In this document: in pieces, positions 42,801 to 57,386 of the stretch | How the letters are laid out: the number at the start of each line of letters is the position of its first letter | Numbering within the stretch: position 1 is the stretch's first letter | From: an uncultured Candidatus Rokubacteria bacterium | GTDB lineage: Bacteria > Methylomirabilota > Methylomirabilia > Rokubacteriales > DASRDR01 | Reading direction: 5' to 3' | Length of the DNA: 64,000 nt | Assembly (NCBI GenBank): GCA_963805625.1 | Contig: CAWDVE010000010.1 | Coordinates: 2,112,001-2,176,000 of the forward strand | Translations under genes and position numbers: made by a program | Notes under the pieces: model-generated | The model's database searches: none | What the model saw: the letters and a program-made list of their open reading frames with translations, nothing else | What the model was told of the DNA's origin: nothing

Positions 42801-43317
42801 TGATCAGGGCGCCGGCAGGCGCTCCCCCGCGGGATCCCCGAGGGCCCGAGACCAGGCCCTCTGTGGACGGTCAGCCCTGCGGAAACGCGACCACAGGACG
42901 GGCCGGTCGAGGTGTCGCGCGCTCGATTGGGATCGCGCTCTGGTCATGGAGAGGCCTAACCGTGACAACACGGACTGCCAGCTTGTCCGGTCGCGAGACC
43001 AAGATGGCACTGTCGTTCTTGTTGCCGCACACTGCCAAACCGAGATCGCCTGTGTCGCTTTCGCCCGGAGAATCAAACGCTTGCGTGAGGTCCACCGCCT
43101 GGACCGAATGGGAACGGGGTTACTGGCTTCTGGCACAGAACCTGCTCAATGGCCAAGCGACCGACCGAGCGCAGGAAGATCGTCTCCGACCAACACGCTA
43201 GCTGAGGACGAACGGAACTTCGGACCAGGGCCAATCCTCACGTGAGGGCCATGCGACCGAAGGGAACGAGCTGGCAGGCTCGGAGTCGAAGGCGGTCTTC
43301 CGCGAGGGAGACTGCCC

Positions 43318-45213
43318 ATGAGTGCGGCGTGCGTATTCGCGCGACGGAGTTCCTCATCCCGCCGGCAGTTTCCGCGCTTCATCCTCGGCCTTCTCATCTT
43401 TGAGCTGGCGCTCTCGGTCAATGGGGGCCTTGCCCTTGCTCATGGCCCCTCACCTTCTGGACCCAACCCGACCGCGGATAGTCTCACCAACACGCTGCTC
43501 GCCCTGAGTGCGCAGCATCGACAGGCAAGCCCCGCCCACAAGGCCCAGATCGAGAGCCAGCTCCTCGCCACCGCGACCGCCCGCTATCAGTTCCTGGCGT
43601 CGCTGATCGAGGACGACCCGGGCGAGGTGTTGCGGGTCGCCTTGCCCGCCGCTCTCCGGGCCGCGCTGCCACCCGCGGTCAGAGCTTATGTCGAGGAAGA
43701 GGTAGAGGCCGAGGGGACCCTGGAAGTTCTGCATGCGCACCAGGACGGCGGCAGCCGCTATCTCTACTTCCTCGACACCGCCGCCGAGCGGCTGTCGCTC
43801 CACTTCGCGGCCGATCCACCGGAGCTCCAGACCGGCTCTCGGGTGCGGGCCAGGGGTATGCACGTCAGGGGAGCGCTCGCGCTCGGCTCTGGCAAGGGCA
43901 ACGTCACGACGGTCTCCCCGGCTGTCTCGAGCACCCGGGGGGAGCAGCGCACCCTTGTGATCCTCGTCAACTTCTCGGACGACCCCACGGAGCCCTACAC
44001 GCTCGACGAGGCGCGGAGCGTTGTGTTCGCCACAACGAGCCAGTTCTTCCTGGAAAACTCGTTCGAGCAGACGTGGCTCACGGGCGACGTCGTGGGCTGG
44101 TACACCATCCCGCTCAGCGTGACCGTCTGCGACTCTTCCACACTCGCCTCCCAGGCCAAATCGGCCGCCTCCACGGCCGGTGTCGACCTAACCGCGTATA
44201 CGCGGTATGTCTACGCCTACTCCAACGCCTGTGGAGGGTTGGGGCTCGGGACGGTGGGCGGCAATCCCTCCCAAGCCTGGATCAACGGGAGCCTTGATCT
44301 TAGCGTGCTCGCCCACGAGCTCGGCCACAACCTGGGGCTCTACCACTCGCATGCGATGGACTGCGGAAACCAAGTGCTCGGTCCGAGCTGCACCATCTAC
44401 GAGTACGGCGACAGGTTCGATGCCATGGGCAACATTGCCGCCGGCCACTTCAACGCCTTCCACAAGGAGCGTCTTGGCTGGCTGAACGCCGAAGCCTCAC
44501 CCCAGATCACGACGGTCCTGGCCGGGGGCACGTACACGCTCGAGGCCTACGAGCGCGCTGGCTCGGGGCCGAACGCGCTCAAGATCCTGAGATCAACGGA
44601 CCCGAGCACCGGGAAGCGGACCTGGTACTACGTCGAGTCCCGCCAGGCCATCGGCTTCGACGGATTCCTGGCCGAGAACGCGAACGTCGTGAACGGGGTT
44701 CTCATCCACACCGGGTCCGAGTCGAGCGCCGACAGCAGCTACCTCCTGGACATGACCCCCGCGAGCGGGAGCTTGGTTGTCTATGACTGGCGGGACCCCG
44801 CGCTCGGGGTGGGCCAGAGTTTTTACGACCCGGAGTCGGGCGTCACTCTAACGACGGACTGGGTAACGGGGACCGAAGCGGCGGTGACGGTGCGCTTCGA
44901 CACACCGGTCGTGACTGCAGAGTCTATGACGATCTCAACGGATCAGGCGAGCTACACGGTGGGGCAGTCCGTCTCCATCACGGCAACGGTGCGGTCCGGG
45001 GACTCACCTGTCCCGAATGCCAACGTGACGTTCACGGTCACCAAATCGTCGGGAACCGTAACCACGGGAAACGCGACCACCGGATCCAATGGCAAGGCTG
45101 TGTACAAAATGCGGCTGAAGAGGCAAGATCCGGTCGGAATCTATCAGGCAGGTGCCGCAGCCTCGAAGGACGGCCAGTCGGCAAGTGCCATCACCAGCTT
45201 CGCGGTGCAGTAG
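43318..45213 (+). CDS. Secreted metzincin metallopeptidase (M11/M6-like) with C-terminal Ig-like domain
   Basis: Signal segment; LVILVNF, HELGHNLGLYHSH, EYGDRFDAMG, HKERLGW, YYVESRQ; STDQASYTVGQSV domain. Confidence 0.85.
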   Translation: MSAACVFARRSSSSRRQFPRFILGLLIFELALSVNGGLALAHGPSPSGPNPTADSLTNTLLALSAQHRQASPAHKAQIESQLLATATARYQFLASLIEDDPGEVLRVALPAALRAALPPAVRAYVEEEVEAEGTLEVLHAHQDGGSRYLYFLDTAAERLSLHFAADPPELQTGSRVRARGMHVRGALALGSGKGNVTTVSPAVSSTRGEQRTLVILVNFSDDPTEPYTLDEARSVVFATTSQFFLENSFEQTWLTGDVVGWYTIPLSVTVCDSSTLASQAKSAASTAGVDLTAYTRYVYAYSNACGGLGLGTVGGNPSQAWINGSLDLSVLAHELGHNLGLYHSHAMDCGNQVLGPSCTIYEYGDRFDAMGNIAAGHFNAFHKERLGWLNAEASPQITTVLAGGTYTLEAYERAGSGPNALKILRSTDPSTGKRTWYYVESRQAIGFDGFLAENANVVNGVLIHTGSESSADSSYLLDMTPASGSLVVYDWRDPALGVGQSFYDPESGVTLTTDWVTGTEAAVTVRFDTPVVTAESMTISTDQASYTVGQSVSITATVRSGDSPVPNANVTFTVTKSSGTVTTGNATTGSNGKAVYKMRLKRQDPVGIYQAGAAASKDGQSASAITSFAVQ

Positions 45214-45350
45214 CGGTAACCTCGCTCAGGCGCACGAAGCTCCTGAACGGGCAGCGCTCTCCCGCTAAGGCAGGGCTCGAAGGCCCTCGGCCTCGGCTCC
45301 CGCAGCGTGTCAGAACAAGCCTTCGCCTGGGAGCCCGGCTCAAGTTTGTC

Positions 45351-46685
45351 CTAATCCCCCGCCTTCGCACGCTCGAGCTGTCGCTGCAACACGCTGGCGA
45401 ACTGCTCGGTGGGACGTGCGCCAACCAGGATGAAGGGCGTCTCGCCGCGAAACAGGACGAATGTGGGGACCGTCCTGACGCCGATGCCCTGCCCGTCGTA
45501 CAGATCGCGAAGCACGCGCTCCAGGGCCTGCCGGCTTGCCAAGCAGGCGGCGAACCGGGCCTTGTCGAGGCCGAGACTCGCGGCGATTTCTGTCAGCGCC
45601 GTATCCGGATCCTCGCCATTTGACCACTGCTCCATCCGCTCGAACAGCAGGTGATGCATGGGCCAGAACTTGCCTTGATCGCCAGCACATTTTGCGGCGC
45701 TGGCCGCCGCCGGGGCACGGTTGTGGATCCCCCCCAGGGGGAACTGCTTGACGACCCATCGAATCTGTCCCGTCTCGATAAAGCGCTTGGCCAGTTCGGG
45801 TTGGGTCGTCAACTCGTGGCGTTGGCACGGGGGGCACTGAAAATCCACGAACTCCACCATCACCATCTTGGCGTCCGGACTACCCTTGTATGGATCCCCG
45901 GCGACCGTGAAGCCCGGGCGCTTCGGATCGGGCGCCAGGCCCTCCGGCTTGGCCCAGAATGGCAACTCGACCTTCTGGGCCGGCTGGGCCTCTTCCGTCT
46001 TGGGCGGCTCCTTGCCGGCCAGCAGGTCGTCGATCCATCGCGTGAAGACGTCGACGGGCTGGGCCCCGACCAGCGTGTAGGTCTTACCGCTCGGTCGGTG
46101 AACGAACTGGAAGGTGGGCGTCCCGTTGAAGCCCAGGGCCTGCCCCGCCGCCACACTCTGTTGCACGAGGGCCTCATGGCGGCCCGAGGCCACACACTGC
46201 TCGTACGCGGTCATGTCGGCACCGGCCTTCTGGGCGACCTTGGCTAGGAAGGGCCGGGGATCGGGCAGCCGGTTCCACTCCTGCTGGGTTTGAAACAGCA
46301 CATCGTGCATCTGCCAGTACCGACTCGCCCCCTGCTCGCCCACACACCGAGCGGCCACGTGGCCTCTCGGCGCCATGGGATGCAGGCCAACGAGCGGAAG
46401 ATCGCGAAGCACGAACTGCACCTGCCCCGGCCGGACATACTTTTCCAGGAGAGCCGGCAAGGTCTCGCGGGCGTACCGCTCGCAGAACGGACAAAGATAG
46501 TCGGTGTACTCCACCAGGGTCAGTGGGGCGTCCGGATTCCCCCGAAAAGGATACCCGTCGGAAGTGAAACCAACAGGCATCCCCTGATAGGTCTCCAGGA
46601 CCGCGGCGTGCGCGGCACTGCTCCCAATGAACCAGACAGCCGCGAGCGAGAGCCAGAGCCAGCGTCTCCAATGTCTCGAATTCAT
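45351..46685 (-). CDS. Secreted tandem two-domain DsbA-like thiol-disulfide oxidoreductase
   Basis: Signal peptide; EYTDYLCPFC..GTPTF and EFVDFQCPPC..TVPTF; GAGGAG RBS. Confidence 0.9.
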   Translation of the reverse strand: MNSRHWRRWLWLSLAAVWFIGSSAAHAAVLETYQGMPVGFTSDGYPFRGNPDAPLTLVEYTDYLCPFCERYARETLPALLEKYVRPGQVQFVLRDLPLVGLHPMAPRGHVAARCVGEQGASRYWQMHDVLFQTQQEWNRLPDPRPFLAKVAQKAGADMTAYEQCVASGRHEALVQQSVAAGQALGFNGTPTFQFVHRPSGKTYTLVGAQPVDVFTRWIDDLLAGKEPPKTEEAQPAQKVELPFWAKPEGLAPDPKRPGFTVAGDPYKGSPDAKMVMVEFVDFQCPPCQRHELTTQPELAKRFIETGQIRWVVKQFPLGGIHNRAPAAASAAKCAGDQGKFWPMHHLLFERMEQWSNGEDPDTALTEIAASLGLDKARFAACLASRQALERVLRDLYDGQGIGVRTVPTFVLFRGETPFILVGARPTEQFASVLQRQLERAKAGD

Positions 46686-46772
46686 GGTCTCCTCATAGGT
46701 TAGCCGTTACCACGGCCAACCTCATCGCCACTGCTCGTCCAGGTCATGTCCTGGACGTCGAACAGCCCTCCC

Positions 46773-46803
46773 GCTAGCCCGGCGTCTCGGACGCCGGGCT
46801 AGC
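46773..46803. terminator. 14-bp perfect hairpin between the Cys-rich gene and the dsbA-like gene (partial terminator or mRNA stabiliser)
   Basis: GCTAGCCCGGCGTC-TCG-GACGCCGGGCTAGC; no U tract. Confidence 0.6.
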
Positions 46804-46901
46804 CCGGGAGGCGTCATGGACTTGACGCACCAACGCGCGACCGGGTCGGCACGCCCGCGTTGCGGAGCGCGCCGCCCGGTCGCCGGATCGCGACGGCTCG
46901 A

Positions 46902-48461
46902 CTACGGGATCGTCGTGGTCACAGTTACCGAGGCGCTACCGGACGGTGAGGACTGCACACCGTCATCATCCGTCACGCCGCCCGTCACCCTGTCCGTGTG
47001 CGTGAAGCTGCACGACGTACTGACGATTTTTCCCACGAACTGACAGGTGTAGTTGCCACTCTGTGCGATGGTAGCCGGCAGCGTTCCCGGCCCCGGCGAG
47101 GCCTGGCCACAGCTCGTGCTCACCACCTGTTCGCACGTGGCCAACACTCCGCAGTCGGTATTGGCCGCGTGCGTCGCTGCGATGTTGCCGAACTTGTTGT
47201 CAGTGAGCGTACTCAGCGTCAGTGTATCAATTGCCGACTGGTTGCTCACCACGACCTGATACGTCGCGTCCAGCTGGCAATTGGCAGCAGACTGCGCTGT
47301 CTTGGCCAAGGTCGGTGTCGCAGACACGTTCTCGATCCCTACGTCCGCGTCGTCGTCATCGCACACTGCGGCGTTGTTGGGAGTCTGCGTTCCACAGACC
47401 TCGACCGTGTCGGTGACCGTCGTACCGAAATCCCCCGACACGAATGCCTGGAACTTACACGTAGCGCTGCCGCTCGGAGCGAGCACGACACCGATCAGGT
47501 CGGGGCAGCTGAAGTTTGAATCGAAGGTGCAGGCATCAGGCGTCGTAGCGTTCGGCTCACCTACCCCGCACGCCGAAATCGCGCCCAGGTCACCGTACAG
47601 ATCGTCCTGGATGCTGCTGATGGTCACGGACTCGACCAACGAGTCGTTGGTCACCTGGACGGTGTAGGTCACCGCGCCGCCCGTCTCGGGCACGGTGGCC
47701 GGCGACGCACTCTTCACCACTGTGATTTCCGCCTCCTCGACGGTGACCGGGACCTGGAAGGTGTCATCACAAACGCACTTCGACTTCGTGTCCGGGGCGA
47801 AGGACGGGGTAGGGGCATTCGCGTTGATGGTAGCGTTTATGCTGCAAACCGTGCCCTGATTGCTGTGCCAACTGGTGCAGTTGGGCAGGTTCAGGAAGCC
47901 ATCGCCGTCGGAGTCCTGGCATAGGACGTTGGGGATCGTGAAGGTCAGACCAGGCGGATTGCCGTCCACAGGATCGGGGTACGTGCCGGCATTGAGGTCG
48001 CCGCAGGTATCACCATCCAGCTGCAGTACGGGCGAGTTAGTAGGGGGAGGAGCCGCAAGCCTGCTGAGCGAACATGTCCCCAGCCTGGCATTGGCACCGC
48101 CCGCGGTGTTGAAGAAAAAGGCGGCGTCATACCGGGCGTTGGCAGTCACGATCGTCTCGAACGTCGCCGTCAGGGTGAAGTGTGTGCCCGAGGTGCAGGT
48201 GTTAGGCGACACACTGAGCGCGCGGGAAAGCCTGATGTCGTTGGCCGTACAGTTGAGTTTATCCGAGTTCGGGACCGGCTCAGCGGTGTGCCCCGAGAAG
48301 ACCGTCTGCATGCAGACCGTGTCGGGTGTCGTCTGACCGCTGACCGCCGACGCCGGCTGGGCCATCAGGAGAAGCCCGCTCACCGCCAGGACCCCGAGCA
48401 GAATGGGGAGCAGTCTCGTGGGCAGGTGTGAGAGTTTAGTTCGACATGCGCCTGCTTTCAT
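46902..48461 (-). CDS. Secreted Cys/Thr-rich beta protein with two DUF11-like Ig repeats
   Basis: Signal ending AQPASA; 22 Cys counted in the mature part; repeats ITVVKSA..VTYTVQVTN..DDLYGDL and TLAKTA..ATYQVVVSN..DNKFGNI. Confidence 0.85.
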   Translation of the reverse strand: MKAGACRTKLSHLPTRLLPILLGVLAVSGLLLMAQPASAVSGQTTPDTVCMQTVFSGHTAEPVPNSDKLNCTANDIRLSRALSVSPNTCTSGTHFTLTATFETIVTANARYDAAFFFNTAGGANARLGTCSLSRLAAPPPTNSPVLQLDGDTCGDLNAGTYPDPVDGNPPGLTFTIPNVLCQDSDGDGFLNLPNCTSWHSNQGTVCSINATINANAPTPSFAPDTKSKCVCDDTFQVPVTVEEAEITVVKSASPATVPETGGAVTYTVQVTNDSLVESVTISSIQDDLYGDLGAISACGVGEPNATTPDACTFDSNFSCPDLIGVVLAPSGSATCKFQAFVSGDFGTTVTDTVEVCGTQTPNNAAVCDDDDADVGIENVSATPTLAKTAQSAANCQLDATYQVVVSNQSAIDTLTLSTLTDNKFGNIAATHAANTDCGVLATCEQVVSTSCGQASPGPGTLPATIAQSGNYTCQFVGKIVSTSCSFTHTDRVTGGVTDDDGVQSSPSGSASVTVTTTIP

Positions 48462-48515
48462 CTCTAGCCCCTCACGCGGGTGTGAGCTTTCGCCATTCGA
48501 CTCTCACACCGCTTC

Positions 48516-48590
48516 GGCGCTCGCTGGCGCTCGGGGTTGGGCCTCTCGGTGGGCCTCTGGGCGGCTCTCGGGGAGCTCTGGGATGCCCTC
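48516..48590 (-). promoter_or_regulatory. Cluster of six GAGNNCC motifs (Com-type RNA binding sites) in the 5' leader
   Basis: mRNA: GAGGGCATCC-CA-GAGCTCC-CC-GAGAGCC-GCCCA-GAGGCCC-ACCGA-GAGGCCC-AACCCC-GAGCGCC-AGC-GAGCGCC. Confidence 0.7.
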
Positions 48591-48729
48591 AGCGGGGCTT
48601 TCGTAGCTACGCGGGTGAGAGCCCGGTGAGCCTCCTTCCGGTGCGAGCTGTTCCGCAGTTGCGTCAAATGAACACGTCGGTCCGGCGGCCGGGTGCAACG
48701 GCTCATGGAAGCGCCGCGGCGGTCACGCT

Positions 48730-49482
48730 CTAACCCACATCACGGCATTCGACCGTCCTCGCCGGTTGGGCGCCGGGCCCTCCAGGGCGCTGCTCCGCGG
48801 CCGTGGCATCCCTGCGCGACGTCTGACCCATCATGCTCGCCAGGGCCTCTTGGAATGACACGGGGCCCAGCGAACCCCCGTTCTCCGTTATGGAGAGCCG
48901 TCGGCGCTCCGTCGACTTGCTGCCGATCTTCGCTCCCGGTCTCGACGCTCCGGACGCGGCGGAGGAGCGCGAAGCCCCCGCAGCGTACGCGAGCGGCGCT
49001 CGCCGCGCCCGCTGTTCGGGCGATGCCCTCAAGCTCGTGCGGGAACCTGACGCGAGGAGGGCCTGCCGAACGCGGTGCGCCAGGAACCGGGCGGTTTGCG
49101 GAGACACCCCCAGCCGCCGGTCGAGCGTGGCGCCGCTGAGGCCATTGTGAGACCGACAGAGATGCGCGATCGCCAGAAGCCACTTGTTGAGCGAGACGTG
49201 ACTGCTCTCGAACGCGGTCCCGACGGTCACGGTGAACTGGCGGCGACACGCCTTGCACTTCAGGACCCCGGCGCGCGCCGGCCGAACTGAAGCGTCCTTG
49301 GCCTGCAACCGATAGGCTCCAGCGGAGCCACAGTGCGGGCAGACGGGTCCCCCCGGCCATCGCACCTGCTCGAGGAACGCCCGGGCAACGTCTTCCGGAA
49401 GGAACGCCGCCGACGAAGCCGCAAGACCCCTGGGATCCAGCATCCTTGTACGCGCCAAACGTCTGGCTAACGCTCGGGCCAA
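48730..49482 (-). CDS. IS1595-family transposase N-terminal (Zn ribbon + HTH) protein lacking the DDE domain (start uncertain)
   Basis: ARAFLEQVRWPGGPVCPHCGS..KCKACRRQFTVTVGTAFESSH..KWL..LGVSPQTARFLAHRVRQAL; no following VExDET motif. Confidence 0.8.
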   Translation of the reverse strand: MARALARRLARTRMLDPRGLAASSAAFLPEDVARAFLEQVRWPGGPVCPHCGSAGAYRLQAKDASVRPARAGVLKCKACRRQFTVTVGTAFESSHVSLNKWLLAIAHLCRSHNGLSGATLDRRLGVSPQTARFLAHRVRQALLASGSRTSLRASPEQRARRAPLAYAAGASRSSAASGASRPGAKIGSKSTERRRLSITENGGSLGPVSFQEALASMMGQTSRRDATAAEQRPGGPGAQPARTVECRDVG

Positions 49483-49555
49483 CCGCCTGCACCATCGCGG
49501 AGACCCGCGGTCGCCGGAGGGCGGGGAATCGACGGACAGACGCCTGCTTCGGTGC

Positions 49556-49834
49556 TCACGGCACTGCGCTCCGGAGCCCGCGACCCTTCTCCGCGCCGCT
49601 CAGGGCGCTCGGAAGAGCCGCGCGGGCTGGAACTGGCCGAGTGGCCTCGATCGAGCTCGGTCGGGGCATGCTCTCAGCTGCGGGCCGAATGATCTCGAGG
49701 TGCGGCCGTCCGCACTTCGGGCACTTCAACTCCAGGATGACCTGTCCCGCCTGGAGCTCGTTGACGAAATCGCCGAGCCGGCGGTTACACTCCCTGCAAC
49801 GGACCTGCGTCTGGGTCGCCGCGCCCACGGTCAC
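49556..49834 (-). CDS. Mu Com-like zinc finger regulator
   Basis: VRCRECNRRL..ILELKCPKCG matches the Com pattern IRCxxCxKLL..IEIKCPRC; low-complexity tail. Confidence 0.72.
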   Translation of the reverse strand: MTVGAATQTQVRCRECNRRLGDFVNELQAGQVILELKCPKCGRPHLEIIRPAAESMPRPSSIEATRPVPARAALPSALSGAEKGRGLRSAVP

Positions 49835-50727
49835 CGCTCCACTCCGTCTACATGCGAGTGGCGCCCCTTACTCTGAGCACGGCGACCGCAAGCCCACAGC
49901 AACGCTGGTGTTTCGGTCTCACGGTCACCAGTGACGCGCCGACAGGGAGGCAGTTGGTAACTGGCCTGGGGCTGAGTGTCAACACCCTTGACACAGCTCG
50001 CCACACTCGGTCTCACCGTTACGTTACTCCGTGAGACCAGGATGGTTCCGGTGCAAGCCGAAGGCCTTTAGGCAGAATGCTTGTCGCATGTCTATGTGGC
50101 GCGGCAGAGGGGTGCAAGATTCGAACCGATACGGGATACGGGTTTTCACACTGTTCAAACGGTCGGCGACCAGGCCGTCTTCTTCCCATTGCTTCCCATT
50201 GCTTCTCTATACATGTACGCGTGCGACGCGTCTCGGGAAGCGCTGAGAGCCTGGCAAATGGACCATTGAATCTGTAACTCACATTCCTCTCATCAGAAAG
50301 TCACTACTATGTCATCAGGAAAATCATTACCCATGTCTATCAATCGCTTCCTGCATCCAATTGGCCTTCGGGGAAAGATCCATCCACTGGCGCTCGGGAA
50401 ACTATCACGGCACATGAACACACTCCAGCAACAGCGATCTAGGCGCTAGAGCCTCGGCTTTTCCCGGGATCTTGTCAAGAGCAAGATCACAAACCCAGAG
50501 AAGCCCGGTTCCTCTGGCCCTGCGCTAGTTGCCAAACCCACCAGTCGATCATCGGGCGTCAGAGCCGCGTCTGTCGCCATGTCGCGGACCTCGGGCGATG
50601 ACCGCAAGTTCCGCTACCGCTGCCAGCACGCGTATTACCGGGGCCGACCGTCTGCACGAACCGGCGTCCGCTCGGGATGCTCGCGACGAACGAGGCGGTC
50701 CAAAGCGCATCGTTTTCTTACTCTTTG

Positions 50728-55948: not shown

Positions 55949-57386
55949 TGTCAAGCCATCTAAGAAAGATACCGAGGGGTGAATCGTCGAGCCATCTAAC
56001 ATGTAACCCTCGGAGACCGAGCCTGGGGCCGGCGTAGGTGGTTGGCAAAGGTGAAGTCCGGGGTGCCGGGCGGGCGGCCCGGGTGCGGCTTCGGCGGTGC
56101 CGGGATGATGGGCGGGAAGTTCGCCGCCGTGGGGATGGGCACGCCCGCCACCCGCGCGGGCGTGGCCAAGGCGACGAGCCGCTCGATCTTCCGATCGATG
56201 GCCTCGGCCAGGACGAAGGGATCCAGCTGATCGCGTAGGCGGACGAGTTCGCGCACCGCCTGGGAATCCGCCTCGGGGCAGCTCTGGACCCGCTCGAGGG
56301 GCGTGCGCGGAGCATCGTAGTGACGGCGCAACCGCGCGCCGACCCGTTCCTTGCTGAGGAGTTTGACCGACGGCAGGAAGAGGTTGTGCAAGAGCCGGAG
56401 CTCGTGCCGATAGAGCGCATTCAGCGCGGTCACCGCCGCCGGCGTGTCGTAGCGCCAGTAGCCTACGAGCTTCCGGACGTGCGTCCAGTTCTTCTGCTCG
56501 ATGTGGGCGTTGTCGTCCTTCTTGTACGGTCGGCCGCGTGTGAACTGGATCTCCTGCGCCTGGCAGTAGCGGTAGAGATGATGGTTGATGAACTCGGACC
56601 CGTTGTCGGAGTCGATCCCCCGGAGGCGGAAGGGCAGGACCTGCCGGATCTCGTCCAAGGCCGTCTGGACGCCGCGTTCGCCGCGGCCGAGGACCGCCCG
56701 GGTCTCCACCCAGGTGGTGTGGATGTCCGTGACGTTCAGGGAATGGGCGAACTCGCCATCGGCCCGATGGCCCGCATGCGCGACCAAGTCCAGCTCGGTG
56801 AAGCCCGGCACGGTCACATCCCAGTGATCGGTCTTCAGCGGAATGTGGTGCTTGAGGAGAGTGCCCGGTCGGGTCCCGCCATAGCGGCGCGTCGTGCGCT
56901 GCCGCTTGGTTGCGGCCAGGCGCCGGTCGATCTGGCGGGGGCTGATCGCGCGGAGCTGCTGGCACACGGTGGCGGACAGCCGGAGGCGCCGGCGTGCCCA
57001 GGGCAGCCACAGGGGGAGCAGCGCCTTCAACCGCACAGACCAGGGATACCCCGCGGCCTCCCAGATCGCGGTCAACGCCTGGATCACCGCCAGCCCGTAC
57101 GTGGCGGGGCGCCGCCGACGACGGGGCCGCTCGGGGCCCGGGGGCGGCCCGTTGAGAAGCCGCAGCGCGTACTTGCGCTGGTAGCCCGTGGTCTCACAGA
57201 ACTCATCGAGGATCCTCCCCCGCTCGACCCGGGCCGCGCCCCGGTAGCGCGGGTAGACAGCCGTGAGGACCTCCCACCGCGCACGGCGACTCATCATGTA
57301 ACCCTCCTCCGGCCACGGGGCCCTCGAGGGTTACATTCCAGATGGCGCGTCTCTTTCCGCTCGGTAACATTTTAGATGGCGCGATA
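55949..57386 (-). mobile_element. Insertion sequence of about 1.44 kb with imperfect terminal IRs and duplicated subterminal motifs
   Basis: Left TGTCAAGCCATCTAAGAAAGATACCGAG versus right (revcomp) TATCGCGCCATCTAAAATGTTACCGAG; inner copies at 55991-56011 and 57326-57346. Confidence 0.82.
55996..57297 (-). CDS. DDE transposase with integrase core (ISNCY-like, family not firmly assigned)
   Basis: PGFTELDLVAH, IDSDNGSEF, RPYKKDDNAHIEQKN, TPLER. Confidence 0.9.
   Translation of the reverse strand: MMSRRARWEVLTAVYPRYRGAARVERGRILDEFCETTGYQRKYALRLLNGPPPGPERPRRRRRPATYGLAVIQALTAIWEAAGYPWSVRLKALLPLWLPWARRRLRLSATVCQQLRAISPRQIDRRLAATKRQRTTRRYGGTRPGTLLKHHIPLKTDHWDVTVPGFTELDLVAHAGHRADGEFAHSLNVTDIHTTWVETRAVLGRGERGVQTALDEIRQVLPFRLRGIDSDNGSEFINHHLYRYCQAQEIQFTRGRPYKKDDNAHIEQKNWTHVRKLVGYWRYDTPAAVTALNALYRHELRLLHNLFLPSVKLLSKERVGARLRRHYDAPRTPLERVQSCPEADSQAVRELVRLRDQLDPFVLAEAIDRKIERLVALATPARVAGVPIPTAANFPPIIPAPPKPHPGRPPGTPDFTFANHLRRPQARSPRVTC

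Follow-up and report, generated by a model that had tools for sequence, protein, structure and literature searches.

A candidate Com-type zinc finger and RNA-hairpin switch before a secreted-protein gene in a Candidatus Rokubacteria genome

The 64,000-nucleotide stretch of contig CAWDVE010000010.1 from an uncultured Candidatus Rokubacteria bacterium analyzed in this study (the window) carried, on its reverse strand, a cassette of four co-oriented intact open reading frames (ORFs): a Com-like zinc finger, an IS1595-derived gene, a cysteine-rich secreted protein, and a tandem DsbA-like protein. An array of GAGNNCC motifs that form hairpins was located in front of the secreted-protein gene. With a probability of roughly 0.72, the finger binds this hairpin array and switches on the secreted-protein gene, as a non-phage variant of Com control. 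Sequence analysis showed homology of the finger to Com, compensated hairpins, and strand specificity, and it showed that finger, array, and secreted gene occur together. The four genes had been named in a preliminary description of this DNA made from the sequence alone, and all of them were present according to ORF calling and Pfam.

The finger gene (49556..49834, −) encoded a 92-aa protein of the C4 zinc-ribbon type, as indicated by its ORF, by profile matches, and by the ratio of nonsynonymous to synonymous substitution rates (dN/dS), which was 0.11–0.16 where dS was finite. The zinc motif was CxxC-x24-CPKC, and the four cysteines were invariant in 29 aligned finger sequences. A core of about 48 residues (approximately residues 5–52) was conserved in 33 close homologues and was followed by a variable tail. 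The top match of the finger was PHROG 6417, labelled ‘translational regulator’ (4.6e-7), which was matched by 29/29 aligned members. When the finger family was compared with six phage Com proteins by hhalign, a profile match of 97.6% and a pairwise E of 3.6e-12 were obtained over 30 columns from two shallow alignments, and BLASTP against Mu Com returned 32% over 34 aa. Furthermore, when 1.84 billion proteins were searched with the profile, 98 matches were obtained, and these graded into Pfam Com members; of the 41 distal matches scanned, 12 matched Pfam Com (PF10122) at E ≤ 0.001 and six passed its cut-off. The proteins P0064–P0122 formed a wider set of more distant small finger proteins bridging the finger family to Pfam Com. 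In the structure model (pLDDT 82.7), the finger was a four-stranded zinc ribbon. A basic patch of Arg8, Asn13, Lys14, and Arg31 has been proposed for RNA binding by Com (PMC6483171), and the equivalents in the finger were R12, N17, R18, and K40 under an inferred mapping of the numbering. Neither an ANTAR nor a CAT domain was detected in the finger by the Pfam and NCBIfam scan. The kinship with Com proposed in the preliminary description was upheld by PHROG 6417, the hhalign value, and the distal matches reaching Pfam Com; in the comparison with Com by profile and structure, the profile homology stood, while the Pfam cut-off was missed and the fold matches were weak. Judged from its sequence, the finger is a descendant of Com, and it represents a subfamily that has diverged and stands outside formal PF10122 membership.

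According to the motif selected for Mu Com by SELEX, two GAGNNCC sequences 2–3 nt apart form a 3–4 bp stem, of which the CC(N)2-3GAG loop is bound (PMC6483171). The consensus given in the preliminary description, GAG(N)2CC(N)2-3GAG(N)2CC, was in agreement with this motif. In the window, six GAGNNCC motifs were found, all on the mRNA (−) strand, with starts at 48578, 48569, 48557, 48545, 48532, and 48522; the cluster (48578–48516) and its two close pairs were exactly as first reported. The background frequency had been put too low, at once per 400–500 nt per strand, and was actually once per 306–362 nt per strand in the window and 332 nt in the genome. In order-4 Markov simulations of the window (n = 200), the best 63-nt cluster had four motifs (14/200) and never five or six. 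Moreover, this was the sole place with at least five motifs in 70 nt among the 43,800 motifs of the 7.27 Mb genome, and the sole place in the genome with three complementary Com-type hairpins starting within 75 nt.

The six motifs formed three Com-type hairpins, with a fourth, imperfect hairpin just upstream, and all four paired perfectly in their stems. The upstream hairpin H1 (48585..48598, −) had a 4-bp stem and a C-N3-GA loop and lacked the leading GA, and its 5′ arm was predicted to pair with the Shine–Dalgarno (SD) sequence of the target gene. H2 (48564..48576, −; motifs 1 and 2) was an exact bipartite site of the SELEX type, H3 (48540..48555, −; motifs 3 and 4) had a longer loop, and H4 (48517..48530, −) was formed by motifs 5 and 6. 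The 3′ strand of H3 begins the predicted terminator or anti-SD helix in the relatives. The array was followed by an extra stem-loop without U-tract (48480..48509, −), common to the terminator-less class described below, and then by the SD and start codon of the secreted-protein gene (48459..48473, −), which were predicted to be partly sequestered. The array was not covered by any Rfam family, either in the window or in the 28 related loci scanned, and no second array was found in the window’s own genome by motif, pattern, and hairpin searches. Clusters of three to four motifs on the contigs C11 (near 23082, +) and C17 (near 166040–165900, −) were considered as trans targets and rejected, having no tandem hairpins. 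These clusters lay beside att-like repeats, and one of them was next to a tRNA-like end as judged by eye.

The array was conserved in related finger loci. A sense cluster of at least four motifs was present within 2.1 kb downstream of the finger in 54/76 loci, near-identical ones included, and an antisense cluster in 0/76; most of the misses were attributable to short contigs. Where the flank reached 2.1 kb or more, the cluster was located downstream in 25/26 loci and upstream in 0/25. Two loci with weak finger matches and no cluster (L009 and L010) were excluded from the 76-locus tally, and L079 was excluded from alignment A2. In distinct arrays, the NN positions were complementary in 79/80 motif pairs spaced 2–3 nt; the values were 4/58 for pairs spaced 5 nt and 67/410 for the genome-wide background. 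Across 27 aligned arrays, 92.3% of cells paired and 9/16 pairs had two-sided changes, and this pairing was matched by 0/500 shuffles and by none of the slid controls, in a test whose structure was drawn from the window and whose sequences were related. The scan of homologous loci envisaged earlier found the cluster to be kept, strand-specific, hairpin-forming, and co-occurring with the finger.

The array could also sit 1–2 kb from the finger, behind inserted genes. Two arrays were observed in each of the loci L049, L063, L072, and L079, each of them within or close to a platform of the terminator or SD type; the second array of L079 was 300 nt upstream, where the flank was too short for counting. 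Among six phage com gene ends, one hairpin of the selected type or none was found. The com end of phage B3 carried a hairpin with the stem and loop form of H4, which served as a useful positive control, and Mu’s own site, an imperfect match, was missed by the strict hairpin pattern.

The 38 distinct arrays with complete downstream sequence were used to define output classes. A U-tract was located 25–48 nt after H3 in 22 of them (terminator class). Folded alone, the leaders of this class formed a long helix that started from the 3′ strand of H3, carried an H4-like stem at its apex, and ended at the U-tract, and H3 was essentially unformed in this free fold. The median pairing of the terminator base was 0.87 in the free fold versus 0.01 with H3 locked. 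The modelled exclusivity of hairpin and terminator in 22/38 arrays points to antitermination. The remaining 16/38 arrays, the window included, were without a U-tract. In seven terminator-less arrays including the window, the folding gave a consensus 7-bp anti-SD helix, in which the end of H3 and the linker pair with the SD region of the target. The window SD was predicted to pair with the H1 arm instead. Locking the four window hairpins raised the predicted SD accessibility from 0.36 to 0.56 and lowered the opening cost of the ribosome site from 8.8 to 7.6 kcal/mol.

Because the modelled release of the ribosome site was equivocal, antitermination in the relatives is better supported than translational activation in the window. 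The preliminary description had taken the finger for a translational activator. This part fits the minority terminator-less class to which the window belongs, with the modelled release being equivocal, but it does not fit the terminator overlap in 22/38 arrays.

The proposed mechanism is as follows. Without the protein, a longer helix would replace H3, acting as a terminator in most relatives and covering the SD region in the window class. Several finger molecules would bind the CC-N2/3-GAG loops, stabilize the hairpins, and displace the competing helix. The outcome would be read-through for leaders with a terminator; for the window it would, with less certainty, be translation. The output would be a disulfide-rich, immunoglobulin (Ig)-like surface or matrix protein, possibly aided by the neighbouring DsbA, and the switch would take its input from the level of finger protein, which may be set in some relatives by a variant riboswitch for cyclic di-GMP (c-di-GMP).

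Several results weigh against this interpretation. The window finger scored 14.6 bits with Pfam Com, for which the cut-off is 22.9, and three other zinc-ribbon families outscored Pfam Com on it. Both alignments in the hhalign comparison were shallow. In the fold search, a Com-family viral model was ranked 9th with an E of 0.39, none of the matches reached E ≤ 0.001, and the best Z in a second fold search was 3.5. Among the loci, L029 had enough flank and no array, and many related loci were near-identical, so that the counts overstate independence. On the RNA side, some U-tracts of the terminator class were weak. In addition, because the register of the stems varies, RNAalifold on 16 terminator-class sequences recovered H4 as the only consensus element, and it did not reveal covariation in the terminator stem. 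The window kept 5/7 of the consensus anti-SD pairs. Finally, when the hairpins were locked in 13 terminator-less leaders, the opening cost was lowered by at least 1 kcal/mol in five, raised in five, and unchanged in three.

An element resembling a very strong SD was found within 70 nt before the array in 36/43 arrays, compared with 93/645 control stretches. It was located 35–60 nt upstream of most arrays (for example, L008:10005-10030 and L020:3413-3440), and in 22/29 elements with the full motif, an in-frame stop was placed five codons after an embedded GTG or GTT. In L063, L075, and other minimal loci, the element coincided with the last codons of the finger gene, and it was kept even where other genes were inserted. 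Such an element with its short stop-ended frame before most arrays would suit a different function, in which the array is a platform where the finger loads to give processive antitermination, or to protect the mRNA, across the secreted gene and dsbA. The same can be said of the three to four hairpins that are kept though H3 alone overlaps the competing helix, and of the 16/38 arrays with no U-tract and an equivocal ribosome-site release. However, the terminator is built from the 3′ strand of H3 and is predicted to be exclusive with H3, which a local switch explains directly. This alternative was considered improbable, and it was the strongest of those weighed.

It is less probable still that the finger represses the gene or is an autoregulator titrated by decoy sites, so that binding would shut the gene or the array would soak up the protein. 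The raised opening cost in 5/13 terminator-less leaders would agree with repression, as would the loci that carry two arrays (L049, L063, L072, and L079). In the terminator class, however, hairpin formation removes the terminator base, and the characterized relative, Com, is an activator (PMC6483171).

The IS1595-derived gene (48730..49449, −) encoded a zinc-ribbon/helix–turn–helix (HTH) protein without a DDE domain (Pfam PF12760, 8e-16). Its likely start was ATG 49449, and the longest ORF started with TTG 49482. A weak HTH match accompanied PF12760, and the DDE domain was missing in all copies translated. The gene was single copy in the window genome and recurred before or after the finger at about 58–73% identity. 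The dN/dS was 0.19–0.36, and with this value and the recurrence without DDE, the gene appears domesticated; on sequence grounds it is a conserved, selected member of the cassette. Its likeness to IS1595 transposases (PF12760) was in the N-terminal zinc-ribbon and HTH region, while it differed from them in being short, DDE-less, single copy, and under purifying selection. In the protein P0091, the N-terminal half of a finger ran on into IS1595-like sequence, which suggests a frameshift or a fusion of two neighbouring genes.

The conservation of this DNA-binding transposase fragment in the cassette, together with the UniProt label ‘DNA-binding transcriptional regulator’ of a Com-family match, would accord with repeats that act at the level of double-stranded DNA, as sites for the finger or the IS1595-derived protein, or that are remnants of transposon ends. 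This was regarded as very unlikely, since many arrays occurred in loci without an IS1595-like gene, the motifs were strictly on the sense strand and downstream, and the NN positions covaried as stem pairs, which a duplex site does not need.

Among the 28 loci scanned against Rfam, a c-di-GMP-II-GAG riboswitch preceded the finger in two (L008:7842-7927 and L029:4218-4302) and was followed by a terminator-like hairpin with a U-tract. A c-di-GMP-I-GGC riboswitch preceded the peptidase gene in eight (L008, L024, L032, L034, L040, L052, L056, and L081). The ligand of both variants was taken from the Rfam names alone. In the window, Rfam gave no riboswitch match even at E ≤ 10, and a possible eroded remnant of c-di-GMP-II-GAG (49914..49985, −) was visible in the alignment only. 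The SD-like element of the window (48628..48639, −) was also eroded, with −12.3 kcal/mol against the 16S tail of its own genome compared with a family median of −17.5. No sigma-70 promoter match was obtained near the window cassette in the promoter scan. By eye, sigma-70-like promoters were noticed approximately 100 nt before the array in L051, L056, L069, and L089. A promoter before the array when genes intervene would mean that the finger acts in trans on a separate transcript. The eroded SD-like element and riboswitch, the weakened anti-SD helix, and the missing sigma-70 match would fit a system that is functional in relatives and decayed in the window genome, but this is hardly credible, as the four hairpins pair perfectly, the ORFs are intact, and the finger and IS-like genes are under purifying selection relative to their relatives.

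Downstream of the array, the target gene (46902..48461, −) encoded a secreted 519-aa all-beta protein with tandem Ig-like sandwiches (DUF11/DUF7507-like) and 23 cysteines, 22 of which followed the signal region. It was modelled with confidence as a chain of sandwich domains (pLDDT 89), and the fold search returned generic tandem beta-sandwich matches (integrin legs, RbmA, and UafA) with TM ≤ 0.32. The secreted protein is likely a surface or matrix protein; the structural matches being generic, its assignment to adhesins or matrix proteins is an inference. The window protein had 454 homologues. In the related loci, every downstream ORF with a readable start was a cysteine-containing protein with a signal peptide, signal peptides being judged by eye and several arrays having no usable ORF call. 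At least four unrelated types of target were found: proteins of about 180 aa, Ig proteins of 540–600 aa, DUF11/DUF7507-like proteins of 475–520 aa (the window type), and one PEP-CTERM protein. Secreted targets were present at the homologous loci, as had been anticipated.

The next gene (45351..46685, −) encoded an exported tandem DsbA-like oxidoreductase with the sites CPFC and CPPC, and L040 and L081 held a DsbA-like gene in the same position. This confirmed the reported pair of a 22-cysteine secreted protein and a tandem DsbA, and the DsbA-like protein is likely a foldase for the cysteine-rich protein. A fifth cassette gene, absent from the gene set of the preliminary description, encoded a convergent secreted M11-like metallopeptidase with an Ig/MG2 domain (43318..45213, +). 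Both the peptidase and the DsbA-like genes recurred in cassette relatives, the latter between finger and array or after the target.

The distribution of the cassette was patchy. In 251 genomes of the phylum, the finger was found in four and the strict array pattern in four, of which three were common to both; G135 had five motifs after its finger, and the array of G052 was 257 nt from the contig end. The finger, the array, and the two secreted families searched were confined to the same five of 251 genomes, and the finger was found in 0/14 genomes of the same genus. These counts include related genomes that are not independent of one another, and many of the genomes are incomplete. The finger being present in 4/251 phylum genomes, the patchiness indicates that the cassette is an accessory island and not a regulon fixed in the chromosome. 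The lower GC of the cassette region, 0.61–0.66 at 50000–50700 and 43000–48000 of the window versus 0.67–0.75 in most flanks, was in keeping with an island that had been acquired. Among the related loci with a named source, the closest belonged to a metagenome-assembled genome (MAG) of Candidatus Rokubacteria, and another to a Betaproteobacteria MAG. A 433-aa ORF at 55996–57297 (−) of the window resembled an integrase-type transposase by eye and had no Pfam match at 1e-5.

Phage genes were not detected around the cassette. No mom, methylase, or phage structural gene was found among the window proteins scanned (6 + 8 proteins), in agreement with the preliminary description, and no phage structural family was found among 74 neighbours scanned out of 120 ORFs in 20 loci. 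The neighbours were housekeeping, transport, and signalling genes and differed between loci. In viral contigs, no relative of the finger (74 candidates) or of the secreted family (36 candidates) was confirmed, and one array pattern had 0 matches there. No plasmid match was obtained, and the phage matches were weak (E 0.8–3), some being labelled Com or translational regulator. A phage origin of the finger subfamily was rejected, with no relative confirmed among these viral-contig candidates. Of the earlier proposal that the activator had been redeployed on the chromosome, the non-phage context was sustained, while the patchy island was at odds with a fixed chromosomal regulon.

A more elaborate reading, which is tentative and rather less probable than its core, would describe a mobile regulatory cassette of a Com-type finger domesticated from phage by soil bacteria and a truncated IS1595 DNA-binding gene, in which a cyclic-dinucleotide riboswitch sets the level of the finger and its cooperative binding to four hairpins gates interchangeable secreted matrix proteins of the Ig-like kind, with Com acting as a transcription antiterminator. 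Here, one array might be coupled to a terminator in some leaders and to an anti-SD helix in others, much like the expression platform of a riboswitch, though this too falls short of even odds. If true, Com would be a relay in the second-messenger control of the cell surface. Since one array naturally occurs in leaders of both the terminator and the SD type, such leader pairs make the question of transcription versus translation directly testable in E. coli, and they could yield a very small protein–RNA ON switch. The Com/com pair is already in use as an RNA tether. Moreover, the cassette draws attention to a family of extracellular proteins, rich in disulfides and so far undescribed, in uncultured soil bacteria.

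In the literature covered, Com was known only from Mu-like phages, where it activates the translation of mom or of methyltransferases. Neither Com-type terminator switches nor the cassette were described in any paper found, in a search that reached few subscription papers. The main text of a survey of 224 RNA motifs did not contain ‘com’, ‘Mu-like’, or ‘zinc’, and its supplement could describe a similar motif (PMC5737381). In a 2025 review of RNA-binding antiterminators, ‘zinc’, ‘phage’, and ‘mom’ never occurred.

The closest systems were com–mom of Mu (PF10122; PMC6483171) and the com–methyltransferase operons of B3, FluMu, and similar phages (PMC3299994); Com homologues were reported in Mu-like prophages alone in the available part of the latter paper. 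Like Mu Com, the finger had an N-terminal C4 finger, the motifs RCxxCN(K/R)xL and (I/L)(E)(I/L)(K/R)CP(R/K)C, and a dispensable-looking tail. As in Mu com–mom, hairpins with 4-bp stems and CC(N)2-3GAG loops were located downstream of the finger gene on the same strand, and a competing helix was predicted over the start of the regulated gene, which in Mu is the translation-inhibition structure. In contrast, the cassette had three to four tandem hairpins and, in most copies, a predicted terminator; its finger had a longer loop and was below the Pfam cut-off; and its targets were secreted cysteine-rich proteins instead of DNA-modifying enzymes, with no phage genes nearby.

Compared with other antiterminators, the terminator class would resemble the system of the ANTAR protein EutV (PMC3369931), where protein-bound small tandem hairpins with conserved loop residues exclude a terminator in chromosomal operons. 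This exclusivity was predicted here in the relatives and was absent from the window’s own leader. It differed from ANTAR systems in the zinc-ribbon fold, in the loop motif, in having no receiver or sensor domain, and in having up to four hairpins. Similarly, in the CAT antiterminators BglG, SacY, and LicT, an RNA-binding protein stabilizes a stem-loop that partly overlaps a terminator (PMC12591593), as predicted for the cassette, but these proteins have one RAT hairpin, phosphoregulation through PRD, sugar genes as targets, and no zinc finger. If the proposed switch is true, a finger of 50 residues would extend the RNA-binding antiterminators by a class with a zinc ribbon.

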